Positions 4,620 through 64,000 of a stretch of 64,000 nucleotides of DNA are shown one piece after another. The position numbers were made by a program, and so were the translations under genes. Origin of the DNA: an uncultured Candidatus Saccharibacteria bacterium (GTDB taxonomy: Bacteria; Patescibacteriota; Minisyncoccia; CAIUEV01; JAHKAQ01); assembly GCA_964598205.1 (NCBI GenBank), contig CAZRBB010000005.1:5721-69720 (forward strand), in the 5' to 3' direction. The first letter of the stretch is position 1. Every line of letters begins with the position of its first letter. The notes below the pieces were generated by a model. It worked only from the letters and a program-made list of their open reading frames with translations, had not been told where the DNA came from and searched no databases.

Positions 4620-4715
4620 TTCCTAATTATGAATTTCTAATTTTGAATTTCGATTAAAATTTGAATTCTAAATTTTAAATTATTTCGAAACTCAAAATTA
4701 GAAATTCAAAATTAA
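4620..4715. repeat. AT-rich GAATTTCGA / ATTTCGAAACTCAAAATTAGAAATTCAAAATT motif cluster between atpE and atpB
   Basis: Contains ctaattttgaatttcgattaaaatttgaattc and ttatttcgaaactcaaaattagaaattcaaaatt, read directly. Confidence 0.7.
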
Positions 4716-6902: not shown

Positions 6903-6937
6903 AAATTATTTCTTCTCTAACTATCTTTACACTTTCT

Positions 6938-7100
6938 AACAGCTATGGTTTGTTTTTCCAAGGAGAGCATATCGGAAAAATTGCTCGGTTCCGGAATTTA
7001 TAATTTTTTCCAAATAAATTCCGGAAATTTTTCCGATATTCTAGCAAGATTTTTCGCCGGAAAAAATCGAGCGTCTCCTTAAAAACAAACCATAGCTGTT
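6938..7100. repeat. Perfect 20-bp inverted repeat (AACAGCTATGGTTTGTTTTT / AAAAACAAACCATAGCTGTT) enclosing an internal TTCCGGAA-rich nested palindrome
   Basis: The arms were read directly at 6938-6957 and 7081-7100. The ~123-nt interior holds a second hairpin, ttccggaatttat...ataaattccggaa. The element lies in the secD-secF intergenic region. Confidence 0.8.
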
Positions 7101-7117
7101 AAAAAGTTATTTGCTTG

Positions 7118-11617: not shown

Positions 11618-11971
11618 TTAAAAACGAGCCCCCTTATCTATGGAGAAGAGTTTTTTTAGGCTCAAAGTTCCCCTCTTAAAAAGAGTTCTTTTCTTTTTTT
11701 GTTCTTTATTAATTTGCGATTTTAGTTGCTCAACCACTAAATCCCCGGCTACTTCTACAACTTCCGCCTTCTCTCTGGCCAAATAATGCTGACCAGATCC
11801 CCTAATCTGCATTTCCACTAGAAAAAAACCCTGCTTGTCTTTCTCTACCTCTATTTCTAAAATTTCTTCCTTATTCTTAAAAAATTTTTCTAACTTCTGA
11901 ATTTTTTCTTCTAAATAAGTCTTGTTTTTATCCGAAAGCACAACTCCCTTTTGGCGATACTTGATTTGCAT
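11618..11971 (-). CDS. hpf: Ribosome hibernation promoting factor / RaiA family protein
   Basis: 117 aa, MQIKYRQKGVVLSDKNKTYLEEKIQKLEKFF... is a typical YfiA/HPF beta-alpha-beta-beta-beta-alpha fold sequence. Confidence 0.8.
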   Translation of the reverse strand: MQIKYRQKGVVLSDKNKTYLEEKIQKLEKFFKNKEEILEIEVEKDKQGFFLVEMQIRGSGQHYLAREKAEVVEVAGDLVVEQLKSQINKEQKKKRTLFKRGTLSLKKLFSIDKGARF

Positions 11972-12078: not shown

Positions 12079-12400
12079 TTGAATTTCGAATCAACAGTTT
12101 TGATTCATAGCTTTTCTGAACCAATGTTCTTCTCCCAGTTCGTTCGTCCTCGACCAGGACTCGCTCCGCCTTGTTCCTGTTTTACTTTACCTAAAAAGCT
12201 TAAGACTTTAGAGACTAGAAGAATAACTGTTTCAAGCAGAATTGAGTTGTTTCTGCTTGAAACAGTTATTCTTCTAGTCTCTTTCTGTTGTGGGAACAAG
12301 GAGCCTCCTCTAAGAACATTGTTTCAGAAAAGCTTGATTCATAATTCTTTATTCAAAATTATTTCGAAATTCAAAATTAGTCATTCGTAATTAAATAATG
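12079..12400. repeat. Large palindromic intergenic element copy A (~320 bp) with a central perfect 31-bp-stem hairpin
   Basis: The hairpin gagactagaagaataactgtttcaagcagaa-ttgagttgtt-ttctgcttgaaacagttattcttctagtctc lies at ~12221-12292. The flanking arms are mutually reverse-complementary. A second copy is at 18700-19035. The ORFs 12079..12390 and 12105..12299 on this element are probably spurious. Confidence 0.8.
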
Positions 12401-12431: not shown

Positions 12432-15248
12432 ATGAAAAAAATCGTTATTCAAGGAGCCAGAGAAAATAACTTAAAAAATATCAGTTTAGAGTTGCCTCGA
12501 GGCAAGTTTATTGCTTTTACGGGTGTTTCCGGTTCCGGCAAATCCACTCTAGCCTTAGACACCATTTTTGCCGAAGGTCAAAGAAGATACCTAGAAAGTC
12601 TTTCTAGTTACGCTCGGCAATTTTTAGGGCAAATGGACAAGCCAGATGTAGATTTAATAGACGGCCTTTCTCCCGCCATTTCTATTAGCCAAAAAACTGC
12701 CGGTGGCAATCCTCGCTCTACCGTTGGTACCGTAACCGAAATCTACGATTATCTGCGACTTCTTTTTGCCAAAGCAGGAACACCCCATTGCCTTTTTTGC
12801 GGAAAAGAAATCAAAAAAATCTCTAGCGACGAAATGCTCTGTGAAATCCTAGATCAATTCCCAGAAAAAGAAACCTTAGAAATTTACGCCCCAATCGTCC
12901 GTGGTCGCAAAGGAGAATACCAAGGACTCTTAGAAAATCTTTACCGAGAAGGTTACGAAGAAGCACTTGTTAATGGTCGCGTCTTTAAACTTTCCGCTCA
13001 TCGATTTGCCAACCTGGACCGTCATAGCCGTCATCGCATAGAAGTTTTGGTAGACAGACTAGAACTTGAACCCGGTAACTTAGAACGGCTAAACGAAAAT
13101 GTTGAGCAAGCACTAAAGCTAGCAGGAGGAACTGTTACTATTAAAAACAAAGAAAAAACAGCAACCTTTAATCGCAATCAAATCTGCCCCGATTGTAACT
13201 ACAGTTCGCCAGAAATTGAACCCCGCTCTTTCTCCTTCAACAGTCCATACGGCGCCTGCCCCGACTGTGACGGATTAGGAAGAAAACTAGAACTTTCCGA
13301 AAAATTAATTATTCCCGATTACACAAAAACTATTGGCCAAGGCGGTCTTTTGCCTTGGAGCTACCGAACAGGTAATTGGATTGCTTCTATTATTAACGCC
13401 GTGACCCAAGAATTAAAAATTTCTACTCACGATCGCTTAAAAGACATTCCCGCTCACAAGATGGAACGCCTATTAAAAGGCGACGAAGAACCAATCTTAA
13501 TCAAAGTTCGCCTTCATAGTCACCATCAACGAATTTGGCGCTTTCGTTTTTCTGGATTGCTAAATTATTTAGAAAAACGACACCTAGAAACCGATTCCGA
13601 AAAAGTAAGAAAAGAAATAGAAAAATACATGATTCGCCGAGTTTGCCCCGCCTGCCAAGGAGCCCGACTTAAAAAAGAAAGTCTCTTGGTTAAAATTGGT
13701 GGAAAAAACATTAGCCAAGTAACTGAATTTTCCATTCAAGAAGCCGTTAAGTTTTTTAGTGATTTAAAATTAACCAAAACTCAAGCAGCTATTGCCAAGA
13801 GTATTAATAAAGAAATTCAAAACCGACTTTCTTTCTTAGAAAATGTTGGCTTGTCTTACCTTTCACTAAGCCGCGCTTCTAATACCCTTTCCGGCGGCGA
13901 ATCTCAACGCATCCGCTTAGCCAGTCAAATCGGTGCTGGACTAACCGGCGTACTTTATATCTTAGACGAGCCGTCTATTGGTCTTCATGCCAAAGACAAT
14001 CAAAAATTACTCACAACTCTTCACCATTTACGCGATCTAGAAAATACCGTCATTGTAATTGAACACGACGAAGAAACTATTCTAAGTGCCGACTGGCTCA
14101 CAGATATTGGTCCAGAAGCCGGAAAAAAAGGTGGCAATATCGTGGTTAACGCCCCTCTAAAAAAAGCACTAAAAAATTCTGATTCGCTTACCGTCCGCTA
14201 TTTGACCGGTGAAGAAAAAATTGCCGTTCCCGCCACTCGTCGTCGAAAAGGAAAAAATATTTTAAAAGTAGTAGAAGCCGAAGAACATAACTTAAGAAAG
14301 ATTAGTCCAGAAATCCCGCTTGGTTCGTTTACGGTTGTTACTGGAGTTTCTGGTTCCGGCAAGTCTACCTTGGTCAACGAAATTATTTACAAAACACTTG
14401 CCCGCCATTTTTACCGATCCTTAGAACAGCCGGGGCGATGCAAAGAAATCAAAGGATTGCACCATTTAAAAAAAGTAATCAATGTTGATCAATCTCCTAT
14501 TGGTCGCACTCCCCGATCCAACCCGGCCACTTACACCAAGGTCTTTACCCCTATTCGGGAACTTTTTGCCCAAACCAAAGATGCCCGCCAAAAAGGTTTT
14601 GGACCAGGAAGGTTTAGTTTTAATGTTAACGGCGGTCGTTGTGAAAATTGCAAAGGAGAAGGGTTTCTTAAAGTATCTATGCAGTTTTTGCCAGATGTTT
14701 ACCTACCCTGCGATATTTGCCAGGGACAACGCTTTAAAAAGGAAACTCTAAAAATCCATTACCGAGGAAAAAACATTGCCGAAGTTCTAGGAATGACTGT
14801 AACCGAAGCTTTTGAATTTTTTCACGACATCCCTCAAATTGCCGATATTCTAAAAGTAATCGACGAAGTTGGTCTGGGATATATTCAATTAGGACAAGCA
14901 GCCACCACTCTTTCTGGAGGCGAAGCCCAGCGAGTTAAGCTAGCTTCGGAGCTGGCTAAAAGAAGTGTTGGTCAAACACTCTACATTTTAGACGAACCGA
15001 CTACGGGTCTTCACTTTGAAGATATTAAAAAATTACTTTCAGTTTTACAAAAACTAACCGATCAAAACAACACCGTCTTGGTTATTGAGCATAACTTAGA
15101 TGTAATTAAATCTGCCGATTGGATTATTGATCTTGGTCCCGAAGGAGGCAAGCAAGGCGGAAAGATCATTGCCCAAGGATCGCCAGAAGAAATCATTAAG
15201 TATCCCGAAAGTGCTACCGGCCAATTCTTAAAAGAAAAATTAGTTTAA
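12432..15248 (+). CDS. uvrA: Excinuclease ABC subunit A
   Basis: 938 aa with two ABC ATPase modules (GVSGSGKST twice), LSGGE signatures and zinc-finger Cys pairs. Confidence 0.95.
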   Translation: MKKIVIQGARENNLKNISLELPRGKFIAFTGVSGSGKSTLALDTIFAEGQRRYLESLSSYARQFLGQMDKPDVDLIDGLSPAISISQKTAGGNPRSTVGTVTEIYDYLRLLFAKAGTPHCLFCGKEIKKISSDEMLCEILDQFPEKETLEIYAPIVRGRKGEYQGLLENLYREGYEEALVNGRVFKLSAHRFANLDRHSRHRIEVLVDRLELEPGNLERLNENVEQALKLAGGTVTIKNKEKTATFNRNQICPDCNYSSPEIEPRSFSFNSPYGACPDCDGLGRKLELSEKLIIPDYTKTIGQGGLLPWSYRTGNWIASIINAVTQELKISTHDRLKDIPAHKMERLLKGDEEPILIKVRLHSHHQRIWRFRFSGLLNYLEKRHLETDSEKVRKEIEKYMIRRVCPACQGARLKKESLLVKIGGKNISQVTEFSIQEAVKFFSDLKLTKTQAAIAKSINKEIQNRLSFLENVGLSYLSLSRASNTLSGGESQRIRLASQIGAGLTGVLYILDEPSIGLHAKDNQKLLTTLHHLRDLENTVIVIEHDEETILSADWLTDIGPEAGKKGGNIVVNAPLKKALKNSDSLTVRYLTGEEKIAVPATRRRKGKNILKVVEAEEHNLRKISPEIPLGSFTVVTGVSGSGKSTLVNEIIYKTLARHFYRSLEQPGRCKEIKGLHHLKKVINVDQSPIGRTPRSNPATYTKVFTPIRELFAQTKDARQKGFGPGRFSFNVNGGRCENCKGEGFLKVSMQFLPDVYLPCDICQGQRFKKETLKIHYRGKNIAEVLGMTVTEAFEFFHDIPQIADILKVIDEVGLGYIQLGQAATTLSGGEAQRVKLASELAKRSVGQTLYILDEPTTGLHFEDIKKLLSVLQKLTDQNNTVLVIEHNLDVIKSADWIIDLGPEGGKQGGKIIAQGSPEEIIKYPESATGQFLKEKLV

Positions 15249-15250
15249 AA

Positions 15251-15505
15251 TCTAAATCTAAAACCCCAAAGTCAATATTCTCTTTTAGACAATAGCTCCC
15301 AAGAGACTCGCTTGGGCAGACAAGGCTCTGAGTCTGCCTACGCGAGTCTCTTGGGAGCTATTGAAGCTTAAAATAATATTTGAGGACTAAGGATATATCT
15401 GTTCAGAAGACTAAGAGCCTTGTCTTCTGAACAGATATATCCTTAGTCCTCTTTCCATAATAAAAGCATCTCAAAAGAATATTGGTTTTTGGGGTTTTAG
15501 ATTAT
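15251..15505. repeat. Nested palindromic element: an outer inverted repeat enclosing two perfect hairpins
   Basis: The outer arms are aatctaaaaccccaaagtcaatattctctttt (15255-15286) and aaaagaatattggtttttggggttttagatta (15473-15505). Inner hairpin 1 spans 15294-15359 with an 18-bp stem (agctcccaagagactcgc). Inner hairpin 2 spans 15382-15451 with a perfect 30-bp stem (gaggactaaggatatatctgttcagaagac). Confidence 0.8.
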
Positions 15506-15943: not shown

Positions 15944-18676
15944 ATGAGTATTGAAAAAACAAAAAATAAAACAAAAGAGTTTTCTTGTTCTTCTTGCCAA
16001 GGAACCGGTCGTGCTGGTCAAACCGAAGGAACTTGCCCCAATTGTAATGGCAAAGGTTTTTACCAAAAAATCCGCGGATTGGTTCTTTTTTGGGGAAAAA
16101 AACAAAAAGGAATCCCTAGTGTAATTCAAAAATCATTAGAAAAAACTGCCGAAACAATAGAAATTATTATTTTTGTTTTAGGAACACTGTTTATTTTCTT
16201 GGGAGCAATTAATCTTTGGGACAATCTGAAAGCTCACGACAGTATTCTCTTTGATTTGAATCTATTTTTTGACATTTTTTTTGCAGGCTACGCCACCGCC
16301 CCTCTCTGGTTGGGAATATTTCTTCTTTTGGTTCTTTATTTTCATCGGTTCGTTTTTAGAAAGCCCAATCCTATTAACGCCAAAAATCCTTTTTACCGTT
16401 ATCTTTTAGCTGAAAACCCATTCTCCCAAGACAAAAAACAAACACCAAAAGCACTAGATATTTCCACTTCCGCTTCTAAAAATATTATTAAAATCCTCGC
16501 CGATTCATTAAATCTAGCTTTTAGGCGTCAACAAAAACCAGAACTTACTCATTTGCTTTTTGCCCTTATTCAAAAAAAAGAAATCCAGTCCGTCTTTTAT
16601 AAATTAGAAATTCCACCATTAGAATTCATTGAAGAGGCCTTAAAAAAATCTGCCGGATTCACACCGGAAAATTTTTTTCTACTTCCTAAAGAATATAAAA
16701 AAATTCTTTTAAGATCTTTCTGGGAAGCAGTAAGAAACGAAGACGAGACCATTCTCCCGGAACATCTTTTGGCGGCACTAGTCGATGAAAAAGACTTCAA
16801 ATTGGTCTTAAACCGCTTTGGGGTCACTGTAGAAGATTTTCGTAATGTTATTTTTTGGATCAAGTATCAAAAAAAGAGAACCGAAGGATTCCTAGAAGAA
16901 GACTCTTTTCGTCGACCACCGCATAGAATAATGAACAAAAGCTGGAGTGCCGTAATGACCAAAACCTTAGACGCTTTTTCCACGGATATCACCGACTACG
17001 CCCGAGCAGGATTGCTTTTCCCAATTGCCAACCGAGTAGAAGAAATTAGATCCTTAATTCAAATTCTAGAAAGAAGGAGTCGCAACAATGCCCTTCTAAT
17101 TGGAGAAGAAGGCAGCGGCAGAGAAACATTGGTCAGAGGCTTGGCCCAGAAAGTAGTTCGAGGAAAAATATCTGGATCACTTTTTGACAAACGAATCGTC
17201 AAGCTAAACTTGGCCAGCCTTGGTAGCGGTTTAGGATCTGATGGTGGTCTTCTTAAAAATAGGATCGAAGTTATTATGAGAGAAATAATCCACACCCAGA
17301 ATGTTATCCTTTATATTCCAGAAATTCACGAACTAGCCAAGGTAACTAGTTTTTCTTCTTTCGATATTCTTAGCTACCTAGCGCCGCTTTTCTCTCAAAG
17401 CATTATCCAAGTGATTGGTTCTACTTCCCAAGAATACTATCACGACTACTTAGAACCACGAGGAGAATTTGCTCAAATGTTCGACATTATTAAAATACCA
17501 GAACTCTCCTTGGACGCATCTCTTAAAGCAGTTTCTCTACGCGTACCACTCTTGGAAAGACAAGAAGGAGTTTCTATTTCTTACCGTGCCGCCGAAGAAG
17601 CCGTGAAAAAATCTGCTAGATACATTACCGACCGACTCCTTCCTCAAAAAGCCATAGACATTTTAGCCGAGGCGGTAGTTAGAAGTAAAAACATTAAAGG
17701 ACAAGGCTTTGTTACAGAACAAGAAGTCCAAGAAGTTTTTTCCGAAAAGACCGGTATTCCACTAACCGCCATGAAAGAAAACGAAGCCGATGAACTTTTG
17801 CTTTTAGAAGAAAAAATAAGAAAACAAGTAATCGGTCAAGAAAGAGCAGTCTCCGATGTTTCGGCCGCTATTCGCCGTGCCCGCGTAAGGATCGGAGAAA
17901 TAGAACGACCCATTGCCGTCTTTTTATTTGTTGGACCAACAGGTGTTGGTAAAACGGAATTAGCCAAAGCACTTGCCGAAATTTATTTCGGCGCCAAAGA
18001 AAAAATGATTCGCCTAGACATGAGCGAATTCGCCACTCCCTACGACATTGAAAGACTACTGGGCAATACTGGCGGTTCCGTCTCTGGACTCTTAACCGAA
18101 CAAGTTCGCAAAAGCCCCTTCTCCTTAGTCCTTTTAGATGAATTTGAAAAAGCTTCTTCTAATATTTGGGACCTCTTTTTACAAATCTTCGATGACGGCC
18201 GAATCACAGACGGTATGGGAAGAGTGGTCAACTTTACCAACACCATTATTATTGCCACTTCCAATGTTGGCAGTCGGCAAATTCTAGAAAACTTAGCTCA
18301 AGGAGGATCGCAAGAATCTATTCAAGAATTAGTTCAAAAAGAACTCCTCACCGTTTTCCGACCAGAATTTATTAATCGCTTTGACGATGTAGTAACTTTT
18401 AATCCGCTTTCCAAAGACAATATTAAAGAAGTTTCTCTTTTGGAAATTAAAAACTTAAACCAGCGACTTGGCGAAGAACAAGGATTAACCGTTGTCTTGG
18501 CCGAAGATGCACTAGACCATTTAGCAGAAATCGGCTATAGTCCCAAGTTCGGTGCCCGCTTCTTAAAACGCTTAATGAGAGAGAAAATAGAAGACGCTCT
18601 GGTAGTAGGAATCCTAAAGAATCAATACCCGCGGGGCAGCGTCGTTACAATTACGAAAGAACAGCTAGTAAAGTAG
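15944..18676 (+). CDS. Membrane-anchored Clp/Hsp100-family AAA+ protein with an N-terminal DnaJ-type CxxCxGxG zinc finger, a degenerate D1 domain and an intact D2 domain
   Basis: The N-terminus carries CSSCQGTGRAGQTEGTCPNCNGKGF, followed by two hydrophobic TM segments and a Clp_N-like repeat. The D1 domain reads LLIGEEGSGRETLV, where Walker A K/T are replaced, and ILYIPEIHEL, where the Walker B Asp is Pro. The D2 domain has GPTGVGKTELAKALA, LLDEFEKA and NTIIIATSN. No M-domain or IGF loop was seen. Confidence 0.8.
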   Translation: MSIEKTKNKTKEFSCSSCQGTGRAGQTEGTCPNCNGKGFYQKIRGLVLFWGKKQKGIPSVIQKSLEKTAETIEIIIFVLGTLFIFLGAINLWDNLKAHDSILFDLNLFFDIFFAGYATAPLWLGIFLLLVLYFHRFVFRKPNPINAKNPFYRYLLAENPFSQDKKQTPKALDISTSASKNIIKILADSLNLAFRRQQKPELTHLLFALIQKKEIQSVFYKLEIPPLEFIEEALKKSAGFTPENFFLLPKEYKKILLRSFWEAVRNEDETILPEHLLAALVDEKDFKLVLNRFGVTVEDFRNVIFWIKYQKKRTEGFLEEDSFRRPPHRIMNKSWSAVMTKTLDAFSTDITDYARAGLLFPIANRVEEIRSLIQILERRSRNNALLIGEEGSGRETLVRGLAQKVVRGKISGSLFDKRIVKLNLASLGSGLGSDGGLLKNRIEVIMREIIHTQNVILYIPEIHELAKVTSFSSFDILSYLAPLFSQSIIQVIGSTSQEYYHDYLEPRGEFAQMFDIIKIPELSLDASLKAVSLRVPLLERQEGVSISYRAAEEAVKKSARYITDRLLPQKAIDILAEAVVRSKNIKGQGFVTEQEVQEVFSEKTGIPLTAMKENEADELLLLEEKIRKQVIGQERAVSDVSAAIRRARVRIGEIERPIAVFLFVGPTGVGKTELAKALAEIYFGAKEKMIRLDMSEFATPYDIERLLGNTGGSVSGLLTEQVRKSPFSLVLLDEFEKASSNIWDLFLQIFDDGRITDGMGRVVNFTNTIIIATSNVGSRQILENLAQGGSQESIQELVQKELLTVFRPEFINRFDDVVTFNPLSKDNIKEVSLLEIKNLNQRLGEEQGLTVVLAEDALDHLAEIGYSPKFGARFLKRLMREKIEDALVVGILKNQYPRGSVVTITKEQLVK

Positions 18677-18699: not shown

Positions 18700-19035
18700 A
18701 TTTCAAAAATTATCTCTACATTCTTTCCCGAACTAATGTTCTTAGAGGAGGCTCCTTGTTCCCGCTAACAGAAAGAGATTAGAGGAATAACTGTTTCAAA
18801 CAGAAACAACTCAATTCTGTTTGAAACAGTTATTCCTCTAATCTCTAAAACCTTAAGCTTTTTAGGCAGAGTAAAACAGGAACAAGGTGGAGCGAGGCCC
18901 GGTCGAGGACGAGCGTACTCCGAGAAGGACATTGGTTCGGGAAAGAATGCTTAATTCAAAAAATTCCTTAATTAATACGCTTAAGCTTTTTCAAAATTAA
19001 TCATTTGAATTTTAATCAAAATTAGTAATTCAAAA
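18700..19035. repeat. Large palindromic intergenic element copy B, the reverse-orientation homolog of 12079-12400
   Basis: Identity to the reverse complement of copy A is about 85-90%. It includes the hairpin gagattagaggaataactgtttcaaacagaa-acaactcaat-ttctgtttgaaacagttattcctctaatctc, which carries compensatory stem substitutions relative to copy A. Confidence 0.8.
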
Positions 19036-19039
19036 TTTA

Positions 19040-20098
19040 ATGAAGGTCCTTTCCCTAGAAACTTCCTGCGACGAAACTTCTTTTGCCTTAGGAGAAATCA
19101 ATAAAAGAAGCGGGCAATTGCTCACCTCTACCACTTTGTCGCAAACCGAAACCCATCGCCCTTTTGGCGGTGTTGTTCCCAATCTTACCGCCAGAGAACA
19201 TCTTAAAAATTTTAAACCACTACTCAACAAAACTCTTAAAAAAGCTGGAATTGAACTTTCCCAGATTGATCTTTTTTCCGTCGCTGCCGGACCAGGGCTA
19301 ATTCCAGCACTCTTAGTTGGGGTAAGTATTGCCAAGGCTTTTTCTTTTTTCTACCAAAAACCACTCTTAGGGTTAAACCACTTAGAAGCCCATCTTTATT
19401 CCGGTTGTTTAGAAAAATCAGGCCGAATTAATCCGGAACTAAAATTTCCCGCTATTGCTCTAATTGTTTCCGGTGGCCACACTCAACTTGTTCTTTTGAC
19501 CGATTTTTTTAATTATCAAATATTAGGAGAAACCATTGACGATGCCTGTGGCGAAGCCTTTGACAAAGCCGCCAGAATTTTAAAGCTAGGTTACCCAGGT
19601 GGCGCAGCAGTCGCCATAGCCGCCGAAAAAGGAGACCCTCATCGCTTTAACTTTCCCCGACCCATGATTCAAAACCCCAATCTTAATTTTAGTTTTTCTG
19701 GCTTAAAAACCGCCCTTCTGTATCAAGCCCAAAAGGAATTTTCTCTGAAAAAACACAATCCCCAAACTGTTTACGATCTGGCAGCTTCTTTTTCCGCCGC
19801 CGCCCTAGAAGTTTTGATTAAAAAAACCGAACGCGCTAGTCAAAAATTCAAACCAAAAACCTTAATCTTAGGAGGAGGCGTTTCTGCTAATAAAAACCTA
19901 AGAAAAGACTTTCAAGAATTGGGGAGCAAACTTGGTTGTAACCTAAAAATCCCCCTTCTTTCGTTTGCCCAAGACAATGCCGCCATGCAATTGCCACTTG
20001 TCTTCTTTCTAAATCAAAAAGATAAAATCAAAAAACTAGAAACAGACTTTTCAAAGATAGAAGCGAAAGCTAATATGGAGTTGGTTAGCTTAGTCTAA
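19040..20098 (+). CDS. tsaD: tRNA N6-adenosine threonylcarbamoyltransferase TsaD (Kae1/YgjD family)
   Basis: 352 aa, MKVLSLETSCDETSFAL...GVVPNLTAREH... together with the HLEAH motif. Confidence 0.9.
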   Translation: MKVLSLETSCDETSFALGEINKRSGQLLTSTTLSQTETHRPFGGVVPNLTAREHLKNFKPLLNKTLKKAGIELSQIDLFSVAAGPGLIPALLVGVSIAKAFSFFYQKPLLGLNHLEAHLYSGCLEKSGRINPELKFPAIALIVSGGHTQLVLLTDFFNYQILGETIDDACGEAFDKAARILKLGYPGGAAVAIAAEKGDPHRFNFPRPMIQNPNLNFSFSGLKTALLYQAQKEFSLKKHNPQTVYDLAASFSAAALEVLIKKTERASQKFKPKTLILGGGVSANKNLRKDFQELGSKLGCNLKIPLLSFAQDNAAMQLPLVFFLNQKDKIKKLETDFSKIEAKANMELVSLV

Positions 20099-22637: not shown

Positions 22638-22680
22638 ATTACAAATTTTGATTTCCGAATTTCGATTAAAATTAGAAAAT

Positions 22681-22790
22681 CAAAATTCAAAACAATTTAT
22701 AAATTATAATTTCAAGCTTTAGTCAAAATTCAAAACAATTTATAAATTATAATTTCAAGCTTTAATCAAAATTCAAAATTCGTAATTCAA
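22681..22790. repeat. 43-bp AT-rich tandem repeat (~2.5 copies)
   Basis: The unit caaaattcaaaacaatttataaattataatttcaagcttta(g/a)t occurs at 22681-22723 and 22724-22766, followed by a partial third copy. Confidence 0.85.
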
Positions 22791-22810
22791 AATTAAGGTT
22801 AAGCCCCCTT

Positions 22811-38884: not shown

Positions 38885-39000
38885 GAATAATTACGAATTA
38901 TGAATTTTGAATTTCGATTAAAATTAGAAATCTGAATTTAGAAATGATTTTTAAATTCTAATTTATAGTTTATTTCAAAATTCAAAATTCATAATTCGTA
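38885..39000. repeat. AT-rich GAATTTCGA / ATTTCAAAATTCAAAATT palindromic motif cluster
   Basis: Contains ttttgaatttcgattaaaattagaaat and ttatttcaaaattcaaaattcataattcgtaattc. It belongs to the same family as 4620-4715, 12340-12400, 18950-19035, 22640-22800 and 43840-43995. Confidence 0.7.
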
Positions 39001-39004
39001 ATTC

Positions 39005-40045
39005 TTAATCATCCTTAGTATCCTTGTTTTTAATCTGAACCTGCTCTAAATTTATTTCCTGTCTTTCTTCTTGATTTGAATCTTGTCCTTGTCCTTGTCC
39101 TTGACTCTGTTCTTGTGTCTGATTCTTATTCTTCTTTAATTCCTCACAATCGTCAAAGTATTTATAGTAGACCCGCTTAGGAATTCGCAAGTCTAAATAT
39201 TCTAAACAAACTCTGTTTTCTGGTCCAATTTCCTTAGCTAAAATTACTTTTAAGGTCTCTGACAATTGCAATAGAGGCATTTTAACATCTACCAAAAGCA
39301 GCCATCCTTCCTCCATTTTCAATTTTAACTCCGAAGCAAAAATTAAAGGAGAAAAAATATCGTTAATTTTTAATCGATTATTTTCTTCTAAATATTTTTT
39401 AACATTGCTAGCAAAATCCACATAAACAGCCGTATTAATTCCCCGGCCAGCTTCTGTAACACTTCCCGACTCGTCTCTTACTAAAACAAATCGTCCACCA
39501 TATCGTGACAAATCTGTTAGAGGGAAAACATCGATCGCCGTTCCCTCTTTGTCTAAGGCAGTACATCTTTCGTTCCCACAAAAAACAACCGTCACCGATT
39601 TTATCGTAGCAGTCACCCTTAACTTATCTGGAAACTTTCTTTCTACCTGAGCTTCATTTACATTTTTAAATTTATCTAGAATATCTTTTTTAATCGCCAC
39701 CGCTGGCACCCAAAATAAATGATCCTTACGCAAAAAAACAAACCGCTTTCCTAAAAGTTGCTTGTCTACCTCTACCTTAATAGCTGCCACATCCACTCCC
39801 TCATCTCCTTTTACAATCACCTCCTTCACCATTAAAAAAGGTGAAATAAAAATCAAATAAAAAATAAGCGAAAGAACAAAGGCAATAGAAAAATGATAAA
39901 AAAACACTGCCAAAACCAAGCGATACTTTGGCAAATTTGTTTTTTGAGTCACTAAATCAATCTTTGGTTTTCTCTTGAAAAAAGATTTTTTCCTAACAGA
40001 AGGAGTCGGTCGCCTGCGTGTTCTTTTTTTTGGTAAGAAAGCCAT
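39005..40045 (-). CDS. ftsQ: FtsQ/DivIB-like cell-division protein (POTRA domain)
   Basis: 346 aa with a basic cytoplasmic tail, one TM, and a POTRA-like region (VKEVIVKGDEGVDVAAIKVEVDKQLLGKRFVFL). The C-terminal tail is Q/E-rich. Confidence 0.55.
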   Translation of the reverse strand: MAFLPKKRTRRRPTPSVRKKSFFKRKPKIDLVTQKTNLPKYRLVLAVFFYHFSIAFVLSLIFYLIFISPFLMVKEVIVKGDEGVDVAAIKVEVDKQLLGKRFVFLRKDHLFWVPAVAIKKDILDKFKNVNEAQVERKFPDKLRVTATIKSVTVVFCGNERCTALDKEGTAIDVFPLTDLSRYGGRFVLVRDESGSVTEAGRGINTAVYVDFASNVKKYLEENNRLKINDIFSPLIFASELKLKMEEGWLLLVDVKMPLLQLSETLKVILAKEIGPENRVCLEYLDLRIPKRVYYKYFDDCEELKKNKNQTQEQSQGQGQGQDSNQEERQEINLEQVQIKNKDTKDD

Positions 40046-43827: not shown

Positions 43828-43839
43828 GGGAGATTAATT

Positions 43840-43995
43840 TCTAATTACTAGTTTTGAATTTCGAAATAAATTTTAATAGTTAATTTTAAAACAGTTCGAT
43901 TTTACTAAATGAAACTTTTCCGAAGCTTGTTTTAAAATTTAAATTTCTAATTTATTTCGAAATTCAAAATTCAAAATTCAAAATTATCCAATTCC
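43840..43995. repeat. AT-rich GAATTTCGAAAT / ATTTCGAAATTCAAAATTCAAAATTCAAAATT motif cluster
   Basis: Contains ctagttttgaatttcgaaataaatttt and ttatttcgaaattcaaaattcaaaattcaaaatt, read directly. Confidence 0.7.
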
Positions 43996-51258: not shown

Positions 51259-51705
51259 CTAAAATGTTGCTGCCTTTTTAATAACAGATTTTCCTCTAGT
51301 CTTGTAATGATCAACTCCTGACGACTCATCCCAGTCATAAGAATAATGAAGAATTTTTTCTTCTATTTCGTAGTAACTGATTTTTGCAGGGTCCACTTCC
51401 CACATATTTATCTTTTCTAAATTTTCTTTTATTTGATTAGTGGAACGCAACTTAGCCGCCTCCAATTCCAAGCTCGCCCTTTCCTTTTTTAGTTCAGACA
51501 ATTTATTATCATATTTTTCTATCTCGTAACCATAGGTCGCTGTCCGGTTAGCCTGAACCAAATAAAACAATGAAAGAAGGCAAATAATTAAAACAGTTGC
51601 CAAACCAACGGCCGTTGTTCCACATTTAAAAGGAAGACTAAGCCGTGAACAGCGAGCATTCCCCGGTTTAATTTTCTTTTTAAAAATATCAATTTTTTCT
51701 ACCAT
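51259..51705 (-). CDS. ftsL: FtsL/DivIC-like septum-formation protein
   Basis: 148 aa with a single TM and a coiled coil (ELKKERASLELEAAKLRS). It occupies the expected dcw-cluster position between rsmH and ftsI. Confidence 0.5.
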   Translation of the reverse strand: MVEKIDIFKKKIKPGNARCSRLSLPFKCGTTAVGLATVLIICLLSLFYLVQANRTATYGYEIEKYDNKLSELKKERASLELEAAKLRSTNQIKENLEKINMWEVDPAKISYYEIEEKILHYSYDWDESSGVDHYKTRGKSVIKKAATF

Positions 51706-51713
51706 TTTTATTT

Positions 51714-52637
51714 TTAGATCTTCTCTACTACTCTTAATTTGGCGCTCCGTGATCGAGGATTTTCTTTTCTTTCTTCCTCGCTCGGAGTTATTGGTTTTTT
51801 ATTTAGCCTTTTTAAAACTGGCCGATGACCGCAAGTGCATTGCCAAGCATCTTCTTCGCAAATACACCCTTGACTTTCCTTTCTAAAAAAATTCTTAACC
51901 AATCGATCTTCTAGGGAATGAAAGGAAATTATTCCTAATCGACCACCTTTTTTTAAACATCCCACCGCTTCCGGTAAAAATTCTTCCAAATTAGAAAGCT
52001 CCTTATTAACCGCAATCCTTAGTGCCATAAAAATCTTGGTCGCTGGATTAATTTTAAAATTTCGACTTTTCCCCTTGTAATGCTTTTCTATTAACTCTTT
52101 TAGCTCCTGCGATTTTTCCCAGAGCTTTCTTTTCCTCCGCTCAACAATTAATTTAGCTATCGGTTCTGCCTCCCTTTCCTCTCCATATTCCCTAAAAATC
52201 CGCACCAGTTCATTTTCTTTTTCTTCATTTAAAATTTCCGCAGCCGTCTTCTCTATTGAACTGTCTAATCGCAAATCCAGTTTTTCATCTTTTTGAAAAC
52301 TTAAGCCCGGAGTTCTTTCTAATTGATCAGAAGAAAATCCCAAATCCGCCAAAATCATTGATACTGATTCAATCTTTAATTTTTGAATGATCTTTTTAAT
52401 ATTTTTAAAATTCCCTAAAACTACCTTAAAATTTTTCCCAACTACCAATCTTTGACCAGCATTCTCCTGATCAAAGTCAATTCCCGCTACCATTCCCTCG
52501 GAACCAACTCTTTTTAAGATCTCCTTAGCATGACCGCCACCGCCCAAAGTACAATCCACAAAGATTTCCCCTTTCGCTGGATCAAGCAATTTCAAAACCT
52601 CCTCTAAAAGAACCGGGGAATGCTTTGTTTCTGGCAT
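51714..52637 (-). CDS. rsmH: 16S rRNA (cytosine1402-N4)-methyltransferase RsmH/MraW
   Basis: The motif HSPVLLEEV...FVDCTLGGGGHA is typical of RsmH. The track ORF extends to 52733, but the conserved protein starts at the internal M (MPETKHSPVLL, codon ending 52637), which abuts mraZ without overlap. Confidence 0.85.
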   Translation of the reverse strand: MPETKHSPVLLEEVLKLLDPAKGEIFVDCTLGGGGHAKEILKRVGSEGMVAGIDFDQENAGQRLVVGKNFKVVLGNFKNIKKIIQKLKIESVSMILADLGFSSDQLERTPGLSFQKDEKLDLRLDSSIEKTAAEILNEEKENELVRIFREYGEEREAEPIAKLIVERRKRKLWEKSQELKELIEKHYKGKSRNFKINPATKIFMALRIAVNKELSNLEEFLPEAVGCLKKGGRLGIISFHSLEDRLVKNFFRKESQGCICEEDAWQCTCGHRPVLKRLNKKPITPSEEERKENPRSRSAKLRVVEKI

Positions 52638-52639
52638 TC

Positions 52640-53074
52640 TTAGTAAGCTCCCAGTTCTCCTAATTTTTCTGCTACCTTTTCGGTATCTTTCTCCGCTTTT
52701 TCTTTGTAGGCTTTCCATTGTTTTTCTTCCCAAATTTCCAATCTATTAAAAAGTCCGTTGATCACCGCATTTTTTCCTAAAACAGCATAGTCCTTTAAAT
52801 ATTCAGGAATTAGAATTCTTCCCAATCCATCTAGTTTCACTTCCGAAGCTCCAGCTAACATTAAACGCACAAAACTACGAGTTCCTCCTTCTCCAATCGG
52901 CATCTTCCCTAACTTAAAAGCAATTTCTTCCCATGCTTTCTTGGAGTACAAAAACAAACAACGATCCAATCCCCTAGTAATAACGGCTGATCTACCCAGT
53001 TCATCTCTAAATTTAACCGGCACCGCCAACCTGTTCTTAGCATCTAAGTTATGACTGTACTCTCCAATAAACAT
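52640..53074 (-). CDS. mraZ: Transcriptional regulator MraZ
   Basis: 144 aa. MFIGEYSHNLDAKNRLAVPVKFR... is part of the duplicated MraZ domain. Confidence 0.9.
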   Translation of the reverse strand: MFIGEYSHNLDAKNRLAVPVKFRDELGRSAVITRGLDRCLFLYSKKAWEEIAFKLGKMPIGEGGTRSFVRLMLAGASEVKLDGLGRILIPEYLKDYAVLGKNAVINGLFNRLEIWEEKQWKAYKEKAEKDTEKVAEKLGELGAY

Positions 53075-53184
53075 TCTGGAATATTAACACTTTTACCCAC
53101 TTTTAAACACTTAAAAACATTTTAACCCACAATAAAAAGAGAGTCAACTAAGAACAATCAGAACCGTTTTTCCCAAAAAGCGCC

Positions 53185-54036
53185 TTATTTTTTAATTTTT
53201 GACTTTTTTCCTAAAGAAAGAGAAAGAGCTTTTATTTGTTTATCTTTTTGATTCAATTGATCTTCAAAAAAGATAAGGTTTCTAGTCACCTCTTCTTTCA
53301 TTCCTTGCTTTTCTTTTTCTAAAATTTTAGTCTTTAGTGAAAGTTTTTTATTATTTTTTTGAAGCATTGCTAAATCTTCTTGTAGCGCAGAAACAGCCAA
53401 GCTATGAGCCATAATAGCCGCTTTTAATTCTTTTTCCCGTCCCGAAAGTGCCTCTTCTAAAAAACTCATTTCTTTCTTCCAAGAACTTTTTTGACTATTT
53501 AAATTTCCTTCTTTTTCTAAAAAACTTTTCCTCTCTCTTGCCACTTCACTCTTTAGCTCATCATTTTTTTTCCTCGCTACTAACAGCTCTTTTTCTAATA
53601 CTATCTTTGCAATTTCCCCTTCTTTCTTTTGATTTTCCTCTTTTTTCCGCAACTCTTTTTTAAAAAAAAGTAATTGCTCCGCCTTTGCGGAACTTTCTTT
53701 TAAAGTTTCTAACCGATTAATATTTTCTCCTATTAGTTGATCCTTCTTCTTTAATTCTTCTTCTAAAACATTAAGACTTTCCTTGACCAAACTTTCTAAC
53801 TTTTCCTTTTCTTCCCTTACTTTTTGAATCTCTGTAGAGAGTTTTTTTTGATTCGCCTTCTTTTTTTTATTCTTAATCTCTGTCTTTATCTTTTTCTCTT
53901 GGGGAAAAATTTTAGTTTCCACGGCAAAGCCCCAATCAATAAGAACCGTCCCCTTCTCTTTATCTTTTTGACTCTTGCAAAAATGAGTCTCCCCTTTTTG
54001 GTATTTACCCAAATCTTTTGTAAATTTAATCAACAT
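53185..54036 (-). CDS. Hypothetical K/E-rich coiled-coil protein
   Basis: 283 aa with a globular N-terminal ~45 aa followed by a continuous heptad-like charged coiled coil. Confidence 0.4.
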   Translation of the reverse strand: MLIKFTKDLGKYQKGETHFCKSQKDKEKGTVLIDWGFAVETKIFPQEKKIKTEIKNKKKKANQKKLSTEIQKVREEKEKLESLVKESLNVLEEELKKKDQLIGENINRLETLKESSAKAEQLLFFKKELRKKEENQKKEGEIAKIVLEKELLVARKKNDELKSEVARERKSFLEKEGNLNSQKSSWKKEMSFLEEALSGREKELKAAIMAHSLAVSALQEDLAMLQKNNKKLSLKTKILEKEKQGMKEEVTRNLIFFEDQLNQKDKQIKALSLSLGKKSKIKK

Positions 54037-54649
54037 TGGTTTTCTTTATTTTTGCTAATTTTAAAAAACACCAAAATTTTAAGTTAGATAATTTTACCTT
54101 CTCCTTCTCCTTTTCTTCTTCTACTTCCTTTTGATCTTCTTCCTGATTCAATGTTAATGTTTCCGTTTCCAATCCCTTTGAGTTTTCTGTTCCCGGCTCC
54201 ACTAAAAAATCCATCAAACTACTTTCTGTTTCTTCTCTAATGTTTTCTACTGGCACTTCCTTGGAAACTACCTTCTCAATCTTAAAAGATTCTTCTTCTG
54301 CTTCTTTTAAAAATTCGCTTACAGTTTTTTCGGCTTGATAAAGCTCTTCATTTAAAAAACTAAGCTGTTCCCTCTTTTTATCTAGCTGATTTCTTAACAC
54401 CAAAAACTTTTTTTCAAAGAAGAAAATTTCATCCTTCCCTTCGGTTAAACCAGCCAAAAGCCGATCCTGTTCTTTTTTAAAACGGACTAGTTCTTCTTTT
54501 TTAAACTTATATTTTCCATTTTTTTCTTCTGGATTCAAAAAAACCGGTCGCAATATTTTTTTATCAATAAAAGCCAAAAGATCTTCTTCTTTAATGTCCA
54601 AGAACTCCAAAGCCTCTTTTATCTTTACTAATGCCAATTTTGATTCCAT
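54026..54649 (-). CDS. Hypothetical coiled-coil protein
   Basis: 207 aa, charged with coiled-coil character. It overlaps the downstream coiled-coil gene by 11 nt. Confidence 0.4.
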   Translation of the reverse strand: MESKLALVKIKEALEFLDIKEEDLLAFIDKKILRPVFLNPEEKNGKYKFKKEELVRFKKEQDRLLAGLTEGKDEIFFFEKKFLVLRNQLDKKREQLSFLNEELYQAEKTVSEFLKEAEEESFKIEKVVSKEVPVENIREETESSLMDFLVEPGTENSKGLETETLTLNQEEDQKEVEEEKEKEKVKLSNLKFWCFLKLAKIKKTNVD

Positions 54650-54802
54650 TTTTTAAATTCTAGATTTGCTTAAAGGACCTAGTTTTGTAGCACAGCCCTT
54701 TCTTATTGGCAAGAGGAAGGCTATAATTATTCAAAGGTCGAATCACTGTTTATCTAAAAACAAAATATTTACTAAGCTTAAAATCTAAATAAATCAACCT
54801 TT

Positions 54803-55804
54803 ATGGAAAAAATAATAAAAATAATTCCCGAAAAATTAAAAGAAGGCGATGAAATAAGAGTAATCGCTCCGTCTCAGTCTTTGGCTATTATTTCCGAAGA
54901 AATCAAAACAATAGCTTTAGAGCGTTTTTTTGAAATCAACATTCAAATAACTTTTGGAGAAAACGCAGAAGAAAAAGACGAAACCAATTCCAGTCGAATT
55001 GATTCCCGCATTAAAGACTTGCACCAAGCTTTTAGCGACCCCAAGGTTAAAGGAATATTAACGGTCTTGGGTGGTTTTAATAGCAATCAGCTCCTAGATT
55101 ATTTGGATTGGGAACTAATCAAGAAAAATCCCAAAATCTTTTGCGGTTTTGCCGACATCACCGCCCTAAATAATGCCATCTTTCAAAAAACGGGTCTGGT
55201 CAACTATTCTGGTCCCGACTTCTCTACTTTTGGTCAAAGACTTTATTTTGAATACACGCTAGAATATTTTAAAAAATGCTTGTTTCTGAATTACCCTTTT
55301 TATTGTGGCGCCTCCAAGGAATGGAGCGACGATTCCTGGTTTTTGGATCAAAACAACCGAAGTCTAACCACTAATAGTGGCCTATCTTTAATCAAAGAAG
55401 GAGAAGCAGAGGGAACAATTGTTGGAGGTAACCTAAGTACTTTTAGGCTACTTCAGGGAACACAATATTTTCCAAGCTTGGAGGGTACCATTCTTTTTAT
55501 AGAAGAAGACGGCGAAATTCCACTAGAAAAACTAGATAGGGATCTACAATCACTGATCCATCTTCCTGATTTTAAGGGGGTAAAGGGAATGATTTTTGGC
55601 CGATTCCAAAGAGGAAGTAGTTTAGATGAATACAAAATCAAACAGTTAGTTGATTCCAAAAAGGAACTTGCTAATTTACCCATGATTGCTGGAGTAGACT
55701 TTGGCCATACCGATCCTAAAATCACTTTTCCTATTGGCGGCAAAGCCAGAATCAAAGCCTACGAAGCAATGGAGCATTTAGAGCTAGAGATATTAGAACA
55801 CTAA
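54803..55804 (+). CDS. Peptidase S66 family (LD-carboxypeptidase LdcA / microcin-C immunity MccF-like) homolog with Ala at the predicted nucleophile position
   Basis: 333 aa. EGDEIRVIAPSQSL, LTVLGGFNSN and CGFADITAL correspond to the S66 G(F/Y)SD(I)TAL block, with Ser replaced by Ala. LFIEEDGE carries the Glu, and GVDFGHTDP carries the His. Confidence 0.75.
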   Translation: MEKIIKIIPEKLKEGDEIRVIAPSQSLAIISEEIKTIALERFFEINIQITFGENAEEKDETNSSRIDSRIKDLHQAFSDPKVKGILTVLGGFNSNQLLDYLDWELIKKNPKIFCGFADITALNNAIFQKTGLVNYSGPDFSTFGQRLYFEYTLEYFKKCLFLNYPFYCGASKEWSDDSWFLDQNNRSLTTNSGLSLIKEGEAEGTIVGGNLSTFRLLQGTQYFPSLEGTILFIEEDGEIPLEKLDRDLQSLIHLPDFKGVKGMIFGRFQRGSSLDEYKIKQLVDSKKELANLPMIAGVDFGHTDPKITFPIGGKARIKAYEAMEHLELEILEH

Positions 55805-55810
55805 TAAGCC

Positions 55811-56776
55811 ATGCCCACACTACAACTCTATTCTAATTGGTGGTGGATTCGTTTTCTTTTAACACAAAAGTGCAACCAAAAATGCCCCGACTGTTCTCTT
55901 TGTGAGCTTAAAAAAAACAAGGATGATTTTATAGATCCCAAAAAAATTATTGATGCTTTTAGAGTCTTTTCTCTTTGGGGTTATCGGAATGTCACTCTTT
56001 ACGGAGGAGAACCACTGCTTCATCCTTCTTTCCTTAATATTTACAACAAAGCTCAGCACTTTTTCCCAAATATCCAAGTATTTACCAACGGAACAATTAC
56101 CTTCCCAATAAAAATTGTTCCTAGAAAAACAGATTTTTTTATTTTCAATTTTGACTTTAATAAAAATAAAACCTTTATTAAAAATGTTTTCTTTTTAAGG
56201 AAAAATATTCATCCTCACTTGAATTTTAGCATTATTGTTCAGAAAGAAACCGATATTAATCAATTAAAAGCTGATTTGAATTTTTTTGTTAAAAACAATC
56301 TTCAGGATTTTTCTGTTCGTATTTCCATGAACTGTTTTGCAGATATCCTAAAAGAAAAGAAAATTCTTAATCAGAAAATAGTCAGTTTAATAGGCGTTCT
56401 GCAAGAATTGGGTATCCCTTGTGGAATGGCACAAAAAATCCCTCTCTGTTTTTTTCTTTTTCCACTAAAAAAAATCATTAAGTCAACAGTGAATCCCTTT
56501 TGTGGGAAAGAATGTGGTGGTCTTATAGACCCGAATTTTAATATTTTATCTTGTGGAGCGCTATATCGTTACGAGATTAACCCTAGAGATATTAAACCAA
56601 AAAATATGTTTTATAAAAACAAAATTATTTCTCGCAAAAAACATCAAGAAGTGCTTAAACAAATTCTTAAAATTAAATTAAAAAGAAAATCTCCTGATCC
56701 AAAATGCCAAGCTTGCGAATACTACAAAAGAAGAGATTGTGACAGTACCGGCTGTTTTCCTTATACTAAACCATAG
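55811..56776 (+). CDS. Radical SAM protein with a Cys-rich SPASM/twitch-like C-terminal region
   Basis: 321 aa. FLLTQKCNQKCPDC provides the CxxxCxxC motif, and GGEPLLHP is the SAM-binding GGE motif. The C-terminus carries CGMAQKIPLC...CGKECGG...SCGALY...CQACEYYKRRDCDSTGC. It lies 7 nt downstream of the S66 gene. Confidence 0.75.
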   Translation: MPTLQLYSNWWWIRFLLTQKCNQKCPDCSLCELKKNKDDFIDPKKIIDAFRVFSLWGYRNVTLYGGEPLLHPSFLNIYNKAQHFFPNIQVFTNGTITFPIKIVPRKTDFFIFNFDFNKNKTFIKNVFFLRKNIHPHLNFSIIVQKETDINQLKADLNFFVKNNLQDFSVRISMNCFADILKEKKILNQKIVSLIGVLQELGIPCGMAQKIPLCFFLFPLKKIIKSTVNPFCGKECGGLIDPNFNILSCGALYRYEINPRDIKPKNMFYKNKIISRKKHQEVLKQILKIKLKRKSPDPKCQACEYYKRRDCDSTGCFPYTKP

Positions 56777-56781
56777 ACAAA

Positions 56782-58488: not shown

Positions 58489-58497
58489 TCTTGTTGA

Positions 58498-60054: not shown

Positions 60055-60110
60055 AAAAATCTAATAATCTATTGCTAAAGAAGCTCTAAAAAAATTATTT
60101 ATGTTTTTCT

Positions 60111-63000: not shown

Positions 63001-63150
63001 AAATAAAAATAAAATAAAGTAAGATAAAATAAAACCCTACCAAAATTACACTACAAATATACCATGCCCCACATTTTCTAGCAAATTAATCATCCTTCTC
63101 AGTCGTACTTTATTCATGTAGAATCACTAAGACAATAAAAAGCCCAAAAA

Positions 63151-64000
63151 ATGGAAAAATTTTTCTCAAATTTAATATCCCCTTTCCGCTCAACAATAAA
63201 AAAGAAGATTAGATTCAAGAAAGAAATCTTCACCAATACTCTAAAAATTAATTTAACTCAAAGCTGCAATCAAGAACATCTTTCTTGTTACTCTAAATGC
63301 CCAGAAGAAAACAACAACACTTTCATAAAAAAAGAGAAATTACTAAAAACAATGAAAGAATTCTCTTTTTGGGGGTTAAAGAGAATTTCCTTTTCAGGAG
63401 GAGAGCCCTTGCTTCATCCGGACTTCTTTTTTATTTATAACCAAGCCCAAATACTATTTGAAGAAGTTCGAGTTTCCACTAATGGAACCATTCCCCTACA
63501 AGGAGAGCTGGTAGCTAGACAAAGCGATGTCTTTATTTTTAATTTTAAATTTTCAAAAGATGAAAATTTTATTAGAAACTTACATTTACTAAACAATAAA
63601 ACAAACCCTAAAATATTATTCAACATTTTAATAGAAAAAGACACTAACATTCCTCTTTACAAGGAACAGATTCTCCTTTTAAAAAACATTAATTTAAAAA
63701 GAATACTCTTTTCTCTTTCCTTTGATTCCAAAAAAAACATTAACCAAGAAAAAGAAATTCTTAACGAAAAAACTTTTGAAATAGTTAATTTCATTTATAA
63801 CAATAGACAGAATTGCATTCTTCATCAAAGAGTTCCTTACTGCTTTCTCCTTCCAAAATTAAAAGAATTACTAAAAATAAAGACTCCCCAAGGCTATAGC
63901 CTAGAATGCTTAGGAATGCTGGATCACAATTTCAACATCTACCCCTGCCCTCAACACCACCAAGAAAAAAATCCCAAAAACATGTTTTCTAAAAACGACA
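63151..64000 (+). CDS. Divergent paralog of the 55811..56776 radical-SAM protein with a non-canonical Cys spacing (3' end beyond the window)
   Basis: ATG is at 63151 and no stop occurs before 64000, which is why it is missing from the ORF track. The translation runs MEKFFSNL...INLTQSCNQEHLSCYSKCPEEN...FSGGEPLLHPDFFFIYNQAQ...FIFNFKFSKDENF...CFLLPKLKELL...ECLGMLDHNFNIYPCPQ. It is clearly homologous to rSAM1 (GGEPLLHP, FIFNF(D/K)F, NMF(Y/S)KN), but the cluster motif is Cx6Cx3C. Confidence 0.65.
   Translation, partial: MEKFFSNLISPFRSTIKKKIRFKKEIFTNTLKINLTQSCNQEHLSCYSKCPEENNNTFIKKEKLLKTMKEFSFWGLKRISFSGGEPLLHPDFFFIYNQAQILFEEVRVSTNGTIPLQGELVARQSDVFIFNFKFSKDENFIRNLHLLNNKTNPKILFNILIEKDTNIPLYKEQILLLKNINLKRILFSLSFDSKKNINQEKEILNEKTFEIVNFIYNNRQNCILHQRVPYCFLLPKLKELLKIKTPQGYSLECLGMLDHNFNIYPCPQHHQEKNPKNMFSKND

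Follow-up and report, generated by a model that had tools for sequence, protein, structure and literature searches.

The compensated hairpin examined here is the central module of a nested palindromic repeat that occurs at dispersed intergenic sites in the window, by which we mean the whole 64,000-nucleotide stretch of DNA that was analyzed. What is preserved between copies of this repeat is pairing and not primary sequence, and this holds beyond the hairpin into the outer helices of the element. On balance, we favor the view that the repeat is a palindromic mobile element akin to MITEs and REPINs, whose capacity to fold back is maintained at the DNA level by template-switch copying between arms, by selection for mobility, or by both. 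A structured RNA is not established by these data, and the RNA reading is less likely than a DNA-level explanation. The three "compensatory substitutions" that drew attention to the hairpin would then be the signature expected of a DNA palindrome within a mobile repeat, and would not constitute evidence for a host RNA gene.

Two copies of the element, termed A and B, lie within the window (Table 1). The genes around them are housekeeping genes: copy A separates an HPF-like (hibernation-factor-like) gene (11618-11971, - strand) from uvrA (12432-15248, + strand), which are divergently transcribed, and copy B lies between a clpB-like gene (15944-18676, + strand) and tsaD (19040-20098, + strand). 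Over their aligned stretch, the copies differ by 21 transitions, 8 transversions and one indel. The terminal inverted repeats pair to form the outer helix of the fold-back, which also has an inner helix (CCTTGTTCC/GGAACAAGG). Its left arm holds an asymmetric, GC-rich segment, and the central hairpin occupies the middle of the ~223-bp palindrome. The terminal inverted repeats of copy B span 32 nt with 84% complementarity, and the ends of a partner element would match GCTTTTCTGAACCAATGTTCTT. Whether folded as RNA or as DNA, the whole element forms one long fold-back (z about -12 to -13). RNA minimum free energies are -111.0 (+ strand) and -110.8 (- strand) kcal/mol for copy A and -115.4 and -117.2 kcal/mol for copy B, and the DNA hairpins have energies of -33 to -35 kcal/mol on either strand. 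A protein-coding reading of the element was rejected, as a frame that runs open through copy A meets stop codons in copy B and has no Pfam match; searched against 1.84 billion representatives, the 103-aa ORF in copy A matched just two proteins, both repetitive and satellite-like and both by chance.

Table 1. Positions of the palindromic elements, their parts and the AT-rich palindromes (window coordinates unless a contig is named).
Feature	Position	Strand	Remarks
Element copy A, ~223-bp nested imperfect palindrome	12110..12333	+	88-89% identical to copy B over 223 nt
Copy A, left terminal inverted repeat/outer helix arm, AGCTTTTCTGAACCAATGTTCTT	12109..12131	+	23 nt, 96% complementary to 12312-12334
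Copy A, right terminal inverted repeat/outer helix arm	12312..12334	+	
Left 10-bp direct repeat flanking copy A, TTGATTCATA	12100..12109	.	10/10 match to 12334-12343; resembles a target-site duplication
Right 10-bp direct repeat, TTGATTCATA	12334..12343	.	
AT-rich host palindrome, left arm, AATTTTGAATTTCGAA	12075..12090	.	16 nt, 100% complementary to 12363-12378
AT-rich host palindrome, right arm	12363..12378	.	copy A sits mid-palindrome
Copy A, central hairpin 5' arm, 32 nt	12210..12241	+	100% complementary to 3' arm
Copy A, central hairpin loop, 9 nt, TTGAGTTGT	12242..12250	+	
Copy A, central hairpin 3' arm, 32 nt	12251..12282	+	
Element copy B, inverted relative to A	18723..18945	-	
Copy B, central hairpin	18774..18846	-	arms 18774-18805 and 18815-18846; 32 nt, 100% complementary
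Copy B, central hairpin loop, 9 nt	18806-18814		ACAACTCAA on + strand, TTGAGTTGT on - strand
Element D, different nested palindrome, between uvrA and a 124-aa ORF	15255..15503	+	RNA MFE -155 kcal/mol, z = -17.6
Element D, hairpin 1, 32-nt arms, 94% complementary	15290..15363	+	loop complementary to hairpin 2 loop
Element D, hairpin 2, perfect 30-bp stem, 10-nt loop	15382..15451	+	
AT-rich palindromes, window	4624-4714; 12075-12090/12363-12378; 22644-22792; 38886-39006; 43835-43986		
AT-rich palindromes, extensions	L015 12347-12450, 16102-16202, 17496-17581; L019 7026-7141		

An earlier note, made from the sequence of the window, had reported that the central stem is perfect in both copies and that each difference in one arm is matched in the other. 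Both observations are borne out. Exactly three positions distinguish the 5' arms of A and B (C>T, A>G and G>A), and each of these changes has its complement in the 3' arms; all three are transitions, and they are spread across 22 nt of the stem. The probability that six substitutions in two 64-nt stems would form three complementary pairs, with complementary bases, by chance is ~1.3e-6. Chance is excluded as the source of the compensation in the central stem, and the compensation is real. Compared with shuffled sequences, the hairpins fold with z = -13 to -15. Several particulars of the earlier description need correction. The stem measures 32 bp and the loop 9 nt, rather than 31 bp and 10 nt, and the intervals given for the hairpins (12221-12292 and 18767-18838) are off by ~7-10 nt, such that the text found there is not the hairpin as quoted. 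The loops, described as completely different, are the same sequence: ACAACTCAA is the exact reverse complement of TTGAGTTGT, and there are no differences at the nine positions once copy B has been oriented. They looked different because all of copy B is inverted relative to A. In the orientation of copy A, the hairpin is followed by the T-rich sequence TTTCTGTT, and the flanks of the module read AAGCTTAA...TTTAG on one side and CTCTTTC on the other.

The window was extended by ~9 kb off each end via contigs that carry window proteins, and ~82 kb of the organism was covered in this way. A third copy of the element, C, was found ~1.3 kb beyond window position 1 (L015:12944-13087), between atpC and a hypothetical gene. 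Copy C is 81-85% identical to A and has terminal inverted repeats of 25 nt with 92% complementarity. It has no central hairpin, however, and shows the junction TTTTAG/TGGCGGG where A and B have a module of ~78 nt; in B, this module is bracketed by TTAG...TTAG. The state of copy C could have arisen either by a deletion across the base of the hairpin or, conversely, A and B could have gained the module by insertion. In either case, a copy that persists without the hairpin indicates that the hairpin is dispensable for persistence of the element. The census in ~82 kb thus stands at three element copies, all of them intergenic and two with the hairpin. As a separate observation, the asymmetric segment of the left arm holds a small GC-rich hairpin (12157-12171) that reads GTCC...GGAC in A, GTCC...GGCC in B and GGCC...GGCC in C. 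Taken in that order, the copies have T-A, T·C and G-C at one of its pairs, a transversion that was compensated, apparently by way of an intermediate.

Searches for further copies in sequence collections yielded no relatives of the element. An 18-mer from the element gave only five high-GC chance matches among genome contigs, and a 14-mer combined with a purine/pyrimidine extension gave four chance matches among metagenome contigs, in a collection that evidently does not hold the window's own JGI contig. Of two pattern scans of viral contigs, one found no match and the other a single exact match, with nothing relevant among them, and blastn in its distant mode found no match among phages and plasmids. 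Contigs from other samples that cover copy A are 100% identical across it and are uninformative about strain variants. Contigs from two other JGI samples (L019 and L020) are 99.5-99.7% identical to window 51327-64000 and end without reaching the elements; this level of identity indicates that these samples contain strain variants of one species. Three independent de Bruijn assemblies (Logan L002, L023 and L025) stop inside the hairpin of copy A (12239/12253), and two further assemblies (L016 and L017) stop inside copy C (L015 ~12990), as is usual at repeats and palindromes. The elements fragment short-read assemblies of their host organism at the sites where they reside.

The preservation of pairing extends to the rest of the element. 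When the hairpin was removed and copies A, B and C were aligned, the consensus fold comprised 47 pairs. In this alignment of only three sequences (the central stem being available in only two), 95.7% of cells in the outer helices are paired, vs. 39-54% when partners are slid by 1-3 columns, and 9 of the 47 pairs have changed on both sides, vs. 0-2 in the slid controls. The observed measures of covariation were reached by only 3-4 of 500 shuffles. The earlier note had concluded that selection acts on secondary structure and not on sequence, and had proposed a search for a small transcript. The part of this conclusion that stands is that pairing is kept beyond chance, in the hairpin and in the outer helices alike; selection on an RNA structure, and with it a small transcript, is unsupported.

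Several features of the element bear the marks of mobility. Its copies are dispersed and intergenic, and they end in terminal inverted repeats. Copy A is flanked by a 10-bp duplication, and its empty site, without the insertion, would read ...CAGTTTTGATTCATAATTC...; no recognizable duplication adjoins copies B and C, so that one of the three copies has one. Orthologous sites without the element provide a further sign. The window is identical in sequence to JGI metagenome contigs, and the genome is of the Patescibacteria, Moranbacteria-like. UvrA of the window is 67-70% identical to proteins labelled by their sources as Candidatus Moranbacteria or Patescibacteria group, and in four of these relatives (L010, L026, L028 and L008) the HPF gene adjoins uvrA with gaps of 154, 250, 322 and 822 bp. 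A homolog of the element was absent from the HPF/uvrA site in 4 of 4 relatives, which are distant at this level of UvrA identity. Moreover, neither a homolog of element A, C, D or E nor a near-perfect, short-looped hairpin of at least 22 bp is present in the loci of six relatives (125 kb in total). With no homolog at these sites, the element counts as a lineage-specific insertion rather than a conserved regulatory locus. The HPF/uvrA site of one relative (L008 9827-9976, on an ENA contig of 1.2 Mb with a UvrA 69% identical to that of the window) holds another perfect inverted repeat, of 30 nt and unlike those above, whose arms are 90 nt apart, and palindromic elements may have landed at this intergenic position repeatedly. 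Across ~82 kb, no gene for a transposase, a RAYT or an HUH enzyme was seen.

Given these features, the hairpin would be the central module of a short, noncoding, nested-palindromic repeat that acts like a non-autonomous mobile element. The trait that is preserved would be fold-back of the DNA, either as a single strand or as a cruciform. Intrastrand template switching (quasi-palindrome correction) could erase new mutations in one arm or transfer them to the opposite one, possibly several together, and the lineages that keep the fold-back would be those that go on propagating as mobile DNA. Just one or two rounds of arm copying could then account for all three changes between A and B. The earlier note had itself allowed that a single gene-conversion event copying one arm onto the other would remove the case for selection on structure. 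One such arm-to-arm event, spanning at least 22 nt, would in fact explain all three changes.

The character of the stems helps to separate maintenance of DNA from maintenance of RNA. The central stems of A and B and that of hairpin 2 of element D, the three long perfect hairpins of the window, together amount to 94 bp with zero G-T pairs and zero mismatches, whereas the outer helices are ~87% Watson-Crick (12 G-U cells and 6 unpaired cells of 140). At the rate of the outer helices, 94 perfect pairs would be expected with a probability of 0.87^94, or ~2e-6. The copies are also placed without regard to the direction of neighboring genes: A lies in a divergent promoter region, where the best promoter-like sites for uvrA are downstream of the element, B is antisense to clpB and tsaD, and C is co-directional with its neighbors. 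Strict Watson-Crick stems, strand symmetry and mixed orientation all point to maintenance at the DNA level. In addition, the stem has diverged between A and B (6 of 64 positions, 9%) about as much as the remainder of the element (~15%). This is what arm copying predicts, whereas slow, two-step compensation predicts less change in the stem than elsewhere; with three pair changes, the argument is only suggestive.

The foremost alternative is a functional RNA. The hairpin might act as a small RNA, as a cis-regulatory or stabilizing element, as a substrate of RNase III or as a terminator, and its three compensatory substitutions would have been fixed independently by selection on how the RNA folds. 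This reading accommodates pairing that is kept far beyond chance, and since all three changes are transitions, each could have passed through a G-U intermediate. The identity of the 9-nt loop in both copies, the T-rich TTTCTGTT that follows the hairpin in the A orientation, and the precedent of MITE-like repeats that are transcribed and fold as RNA (PMC3184786) would also be in keeping with it. A perfect stem would likewise be expected from very strong selection on double-stranded RNA, for example as a substrate of RNase III. Nevertheless, an RNA that evolves through G-U intermediates is difficult to reconcile with stems devoid of G-U pairs, and neither the lack of strand asymmetry in folding energy nor the mixed orientation of the copies relative to flanking transcription fits a transcript. 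Copy C does without the hairpin altogether, and the element is absent from the related genomes examined. No Rfam family was recognized at threshold: a scan of the window with Rfam 15 gave only two tRNAs at gathering score, and in E-value mode the best matches to the hairpins reached 23-40 bits vs. gathering scores of 70-230. These sub-threshold matches are models of miRNA precursors, i.e., generic long hairpins, with the exception of the Streptococcus sRNA SpF43 (31 bits vs. 70). Taken together, we regard a functional RNA as unlikely.

An intrinsic terminator was considered as a specific form of RNA function and rejected. Such terminators have a short GC-rich stem, a loop of 3-8 nt and a U-tract that faces a gene end, whereas here the stem is 32 bp long and AT-rich, the loop has 9 nt, and the T-rich tail faces no gene end in A or B. 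As copy A sits in a divergent promoter region and copy B is antisense to its neighbors, the tail is not placed to terminate any neighboring gene. No terminator-like sites were listed at the hairpins by site prediction.

A second alternative dispenses with maintenance after insertion. Here, the copies would be young, the stem would have been regenerated from one arm by fold-back synthesis during transposition, and the differences between A and B would have been inherited from sources that had already diverged. The intact duplication around copy A (10/10) does suggest a recent insertion, and the stems have zero mismatches even though the copies differ by 11-12% overall. The presence of a hairpin-like module in two otherwise unrelated elements, A/B and D, is also compatible with regeneration of this kind. 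On the other hand, mismatches and G-U pairs in the outer helices show that these same copies are not pristine. For copies B and C, the lack of a recognizable duplication suggests greater age, and yet the stem of B is perfect. Moreover, no enzyme for such a mechanism was seen. We consider this scenario quite doubtful.

Element D, which lies downstream of uvrA (Table 1), is built differently from A, B and C. An outer stem surrounds two adjacent long hairpins, the 10-nt loops of which (AAGGCTCT and AGAGCCTT) are complementary and have the potential to form a kissing-loop interaction. The alignment score between the arm of D hairpin 2 and the arm of the A/B hairpin was reached by 6 of 2000 shuffles. 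With flanks included, D hairpin 2 and the A/B module gave a local score of 30 against a null of 17.5 +/- 2.1, which none of 300 shuffles reached. This similarity, partly inflated by palindromy, is weakly suggestive of homology between D hairpin 2 and the A/B hairpin module.

The distribution of the module, found in A and B, lacking in C and with a look-alike in D, together with the position of copy A at the center of a host palindrome, gives rise to a more speculative idea. The hairpin and its short flanks could form a self-contained unit that moves into, or is regenerated at, the centers of existing palindromes. The result would be a "Russian-doll" arrangement in a streamlined Patescibacteria genome, in which mobile hairpins target palindromes and their stems are held perfect either by an enzyme dedicated to such hairpins or by a function of the RNA from both strands. 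We think it improbable that such a system operates here. A double-stranded binding site for a dimeric DNA-binding protein (an operator or nucleoid site) would account for perfect dyad symmetry and for intergenic positions beside promoters, but it is scarcely credible, given that sequence-specific binding predicts conserved bases and not 3 of 32 pairs swapped with symmetry kept, that a 32-bp half-site is far longer than those of known operators, and that the hairpin forms part of a larger palindrome with the look of a mobile element and is missing from copy C.

Other palindromes occur in the same DNA. Between secF and secD (window 6931-7107) there is a nested palindrome, unrelated in sequence, with outer arms of 27 nt that are 96% complementary and with inner inverted repeats. 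A further group consists of AT-rich intergenic palindromes (Table 1) made of facing arrays of ~7-nt units (GAATTNN; core motif TTTTGAATTTCGAA). The core motif has 25 matches in the window vs. 6.1 +/- 2.6 expected, and these palindromes are possibly promoter-associated or protein-binding arrays. An analogous palindrome composed of ACGACTT units is found in a relative (L008 20106-20196). Elsewhere in the window (56782-63000), four tandem paralogous ORFs of about 408-568 aa share ~80% nucleotide identity and have no Pfam domain on record.

Patescibacteria have genomes of ~1 Mb and are considered poor in mobile DNA. A full-text search of the literature returned no report of MITEs or palindromic intergenic repeats in this group, and the element described here documents MITE/REPIN-like palindromic repeats in a Patescibacteria genome. 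The case also has a bearing on how covariation is read. Compensated base pairs are usually taken as the strongest in silico evidence of a functional RNA, and that reading probably fails for the palindromic DNA of this repeat, where the symmetry of the two strands, a hairpin that can be absent and the hallmarks of a mobile element all argue for maintenance at the DNA level. If the whole genome holds many copies, they would offer a clean natural test of template-switch correction vs. selection in the evolution of hairpins.

Among known structures, Rho-independent terminators resemble the hairpin in having a stem-loop followed by a T-rich tract (TTTCTGTT in one orientation), but their typical stems are several-fold shorter than the 32 bp observed here. 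Template switching during replication is known to make and repair perfect stems, and a single event can introduce "compensatory" changes at several bases (PMC8794818). Such arm-to-arm copying fits the three paired transitions across 22 nt. Quasi-palindrome correction is, however, a mutational mechanism and not an element family, and its operation in these copies is inferred from their pattern only.

With REPINs and the RAYT-associated REP sequences, the element shares an intergenic, noncoding and dispersed distribution, a long hairpin when present as single-stranded DNA, and compensatory changes. Such changes are common in REPIN hairpins, where selection has been proposed to act on the replicating element and not on a host RNA (PMC3116915, Bertels and Rainey, 2011). 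REPINs are nevertheless ~100 bp in length. Each combines two short, GC-rich REPs that have a conserved core, and tens to hundreds of them accompany a single-copy RAYT gene. The element, in contrast, is ~223 bp, AT-rich and composed of three nested helices with an optional perfect 32-bp hairpin, and only three copies and no RAYT were seen in ~82 kb. No short, over-represented REP core was identified. Of the traits that define REPINs, the element has a hairpin kept by compensatory changes, but in ~82 kb it shows neither the paired REP units with a conserved core nor a high copy number.

The element also resembles bacterial MITEs that fold into long stem-loops, such as bcr1, ERIC, Correia/NEMIS and RUP. 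These repeats are 100-400 bp in length, have terminal inverted repeats and flanking direct repeats, and carry no transposase gene; they are intergenic, their distribution is not conserved between relatives, and they form thermodynamically very stable stem-loops (PMC3184786). The element departs from them in that it has no known parent insertion sequence whose ends match, only one of three copies is flanked by a duplication, the center is a perfect, strand-symmetric palindrome that may be present or absent, and the host belongs to a Patescibacteria lineage. It agrees with the definition of a MITE in its terminal inverted repeats, in its multiple short, dispersed and noncoding copies, and in its presence or absence at orthologous sites. 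Base-pair compensatory changes have also been reported for bcr1, a MITE-like repeat of Bacillus (PMC3184786). A compensated hairpin is a familiar property of bacterial palindromic repeats.
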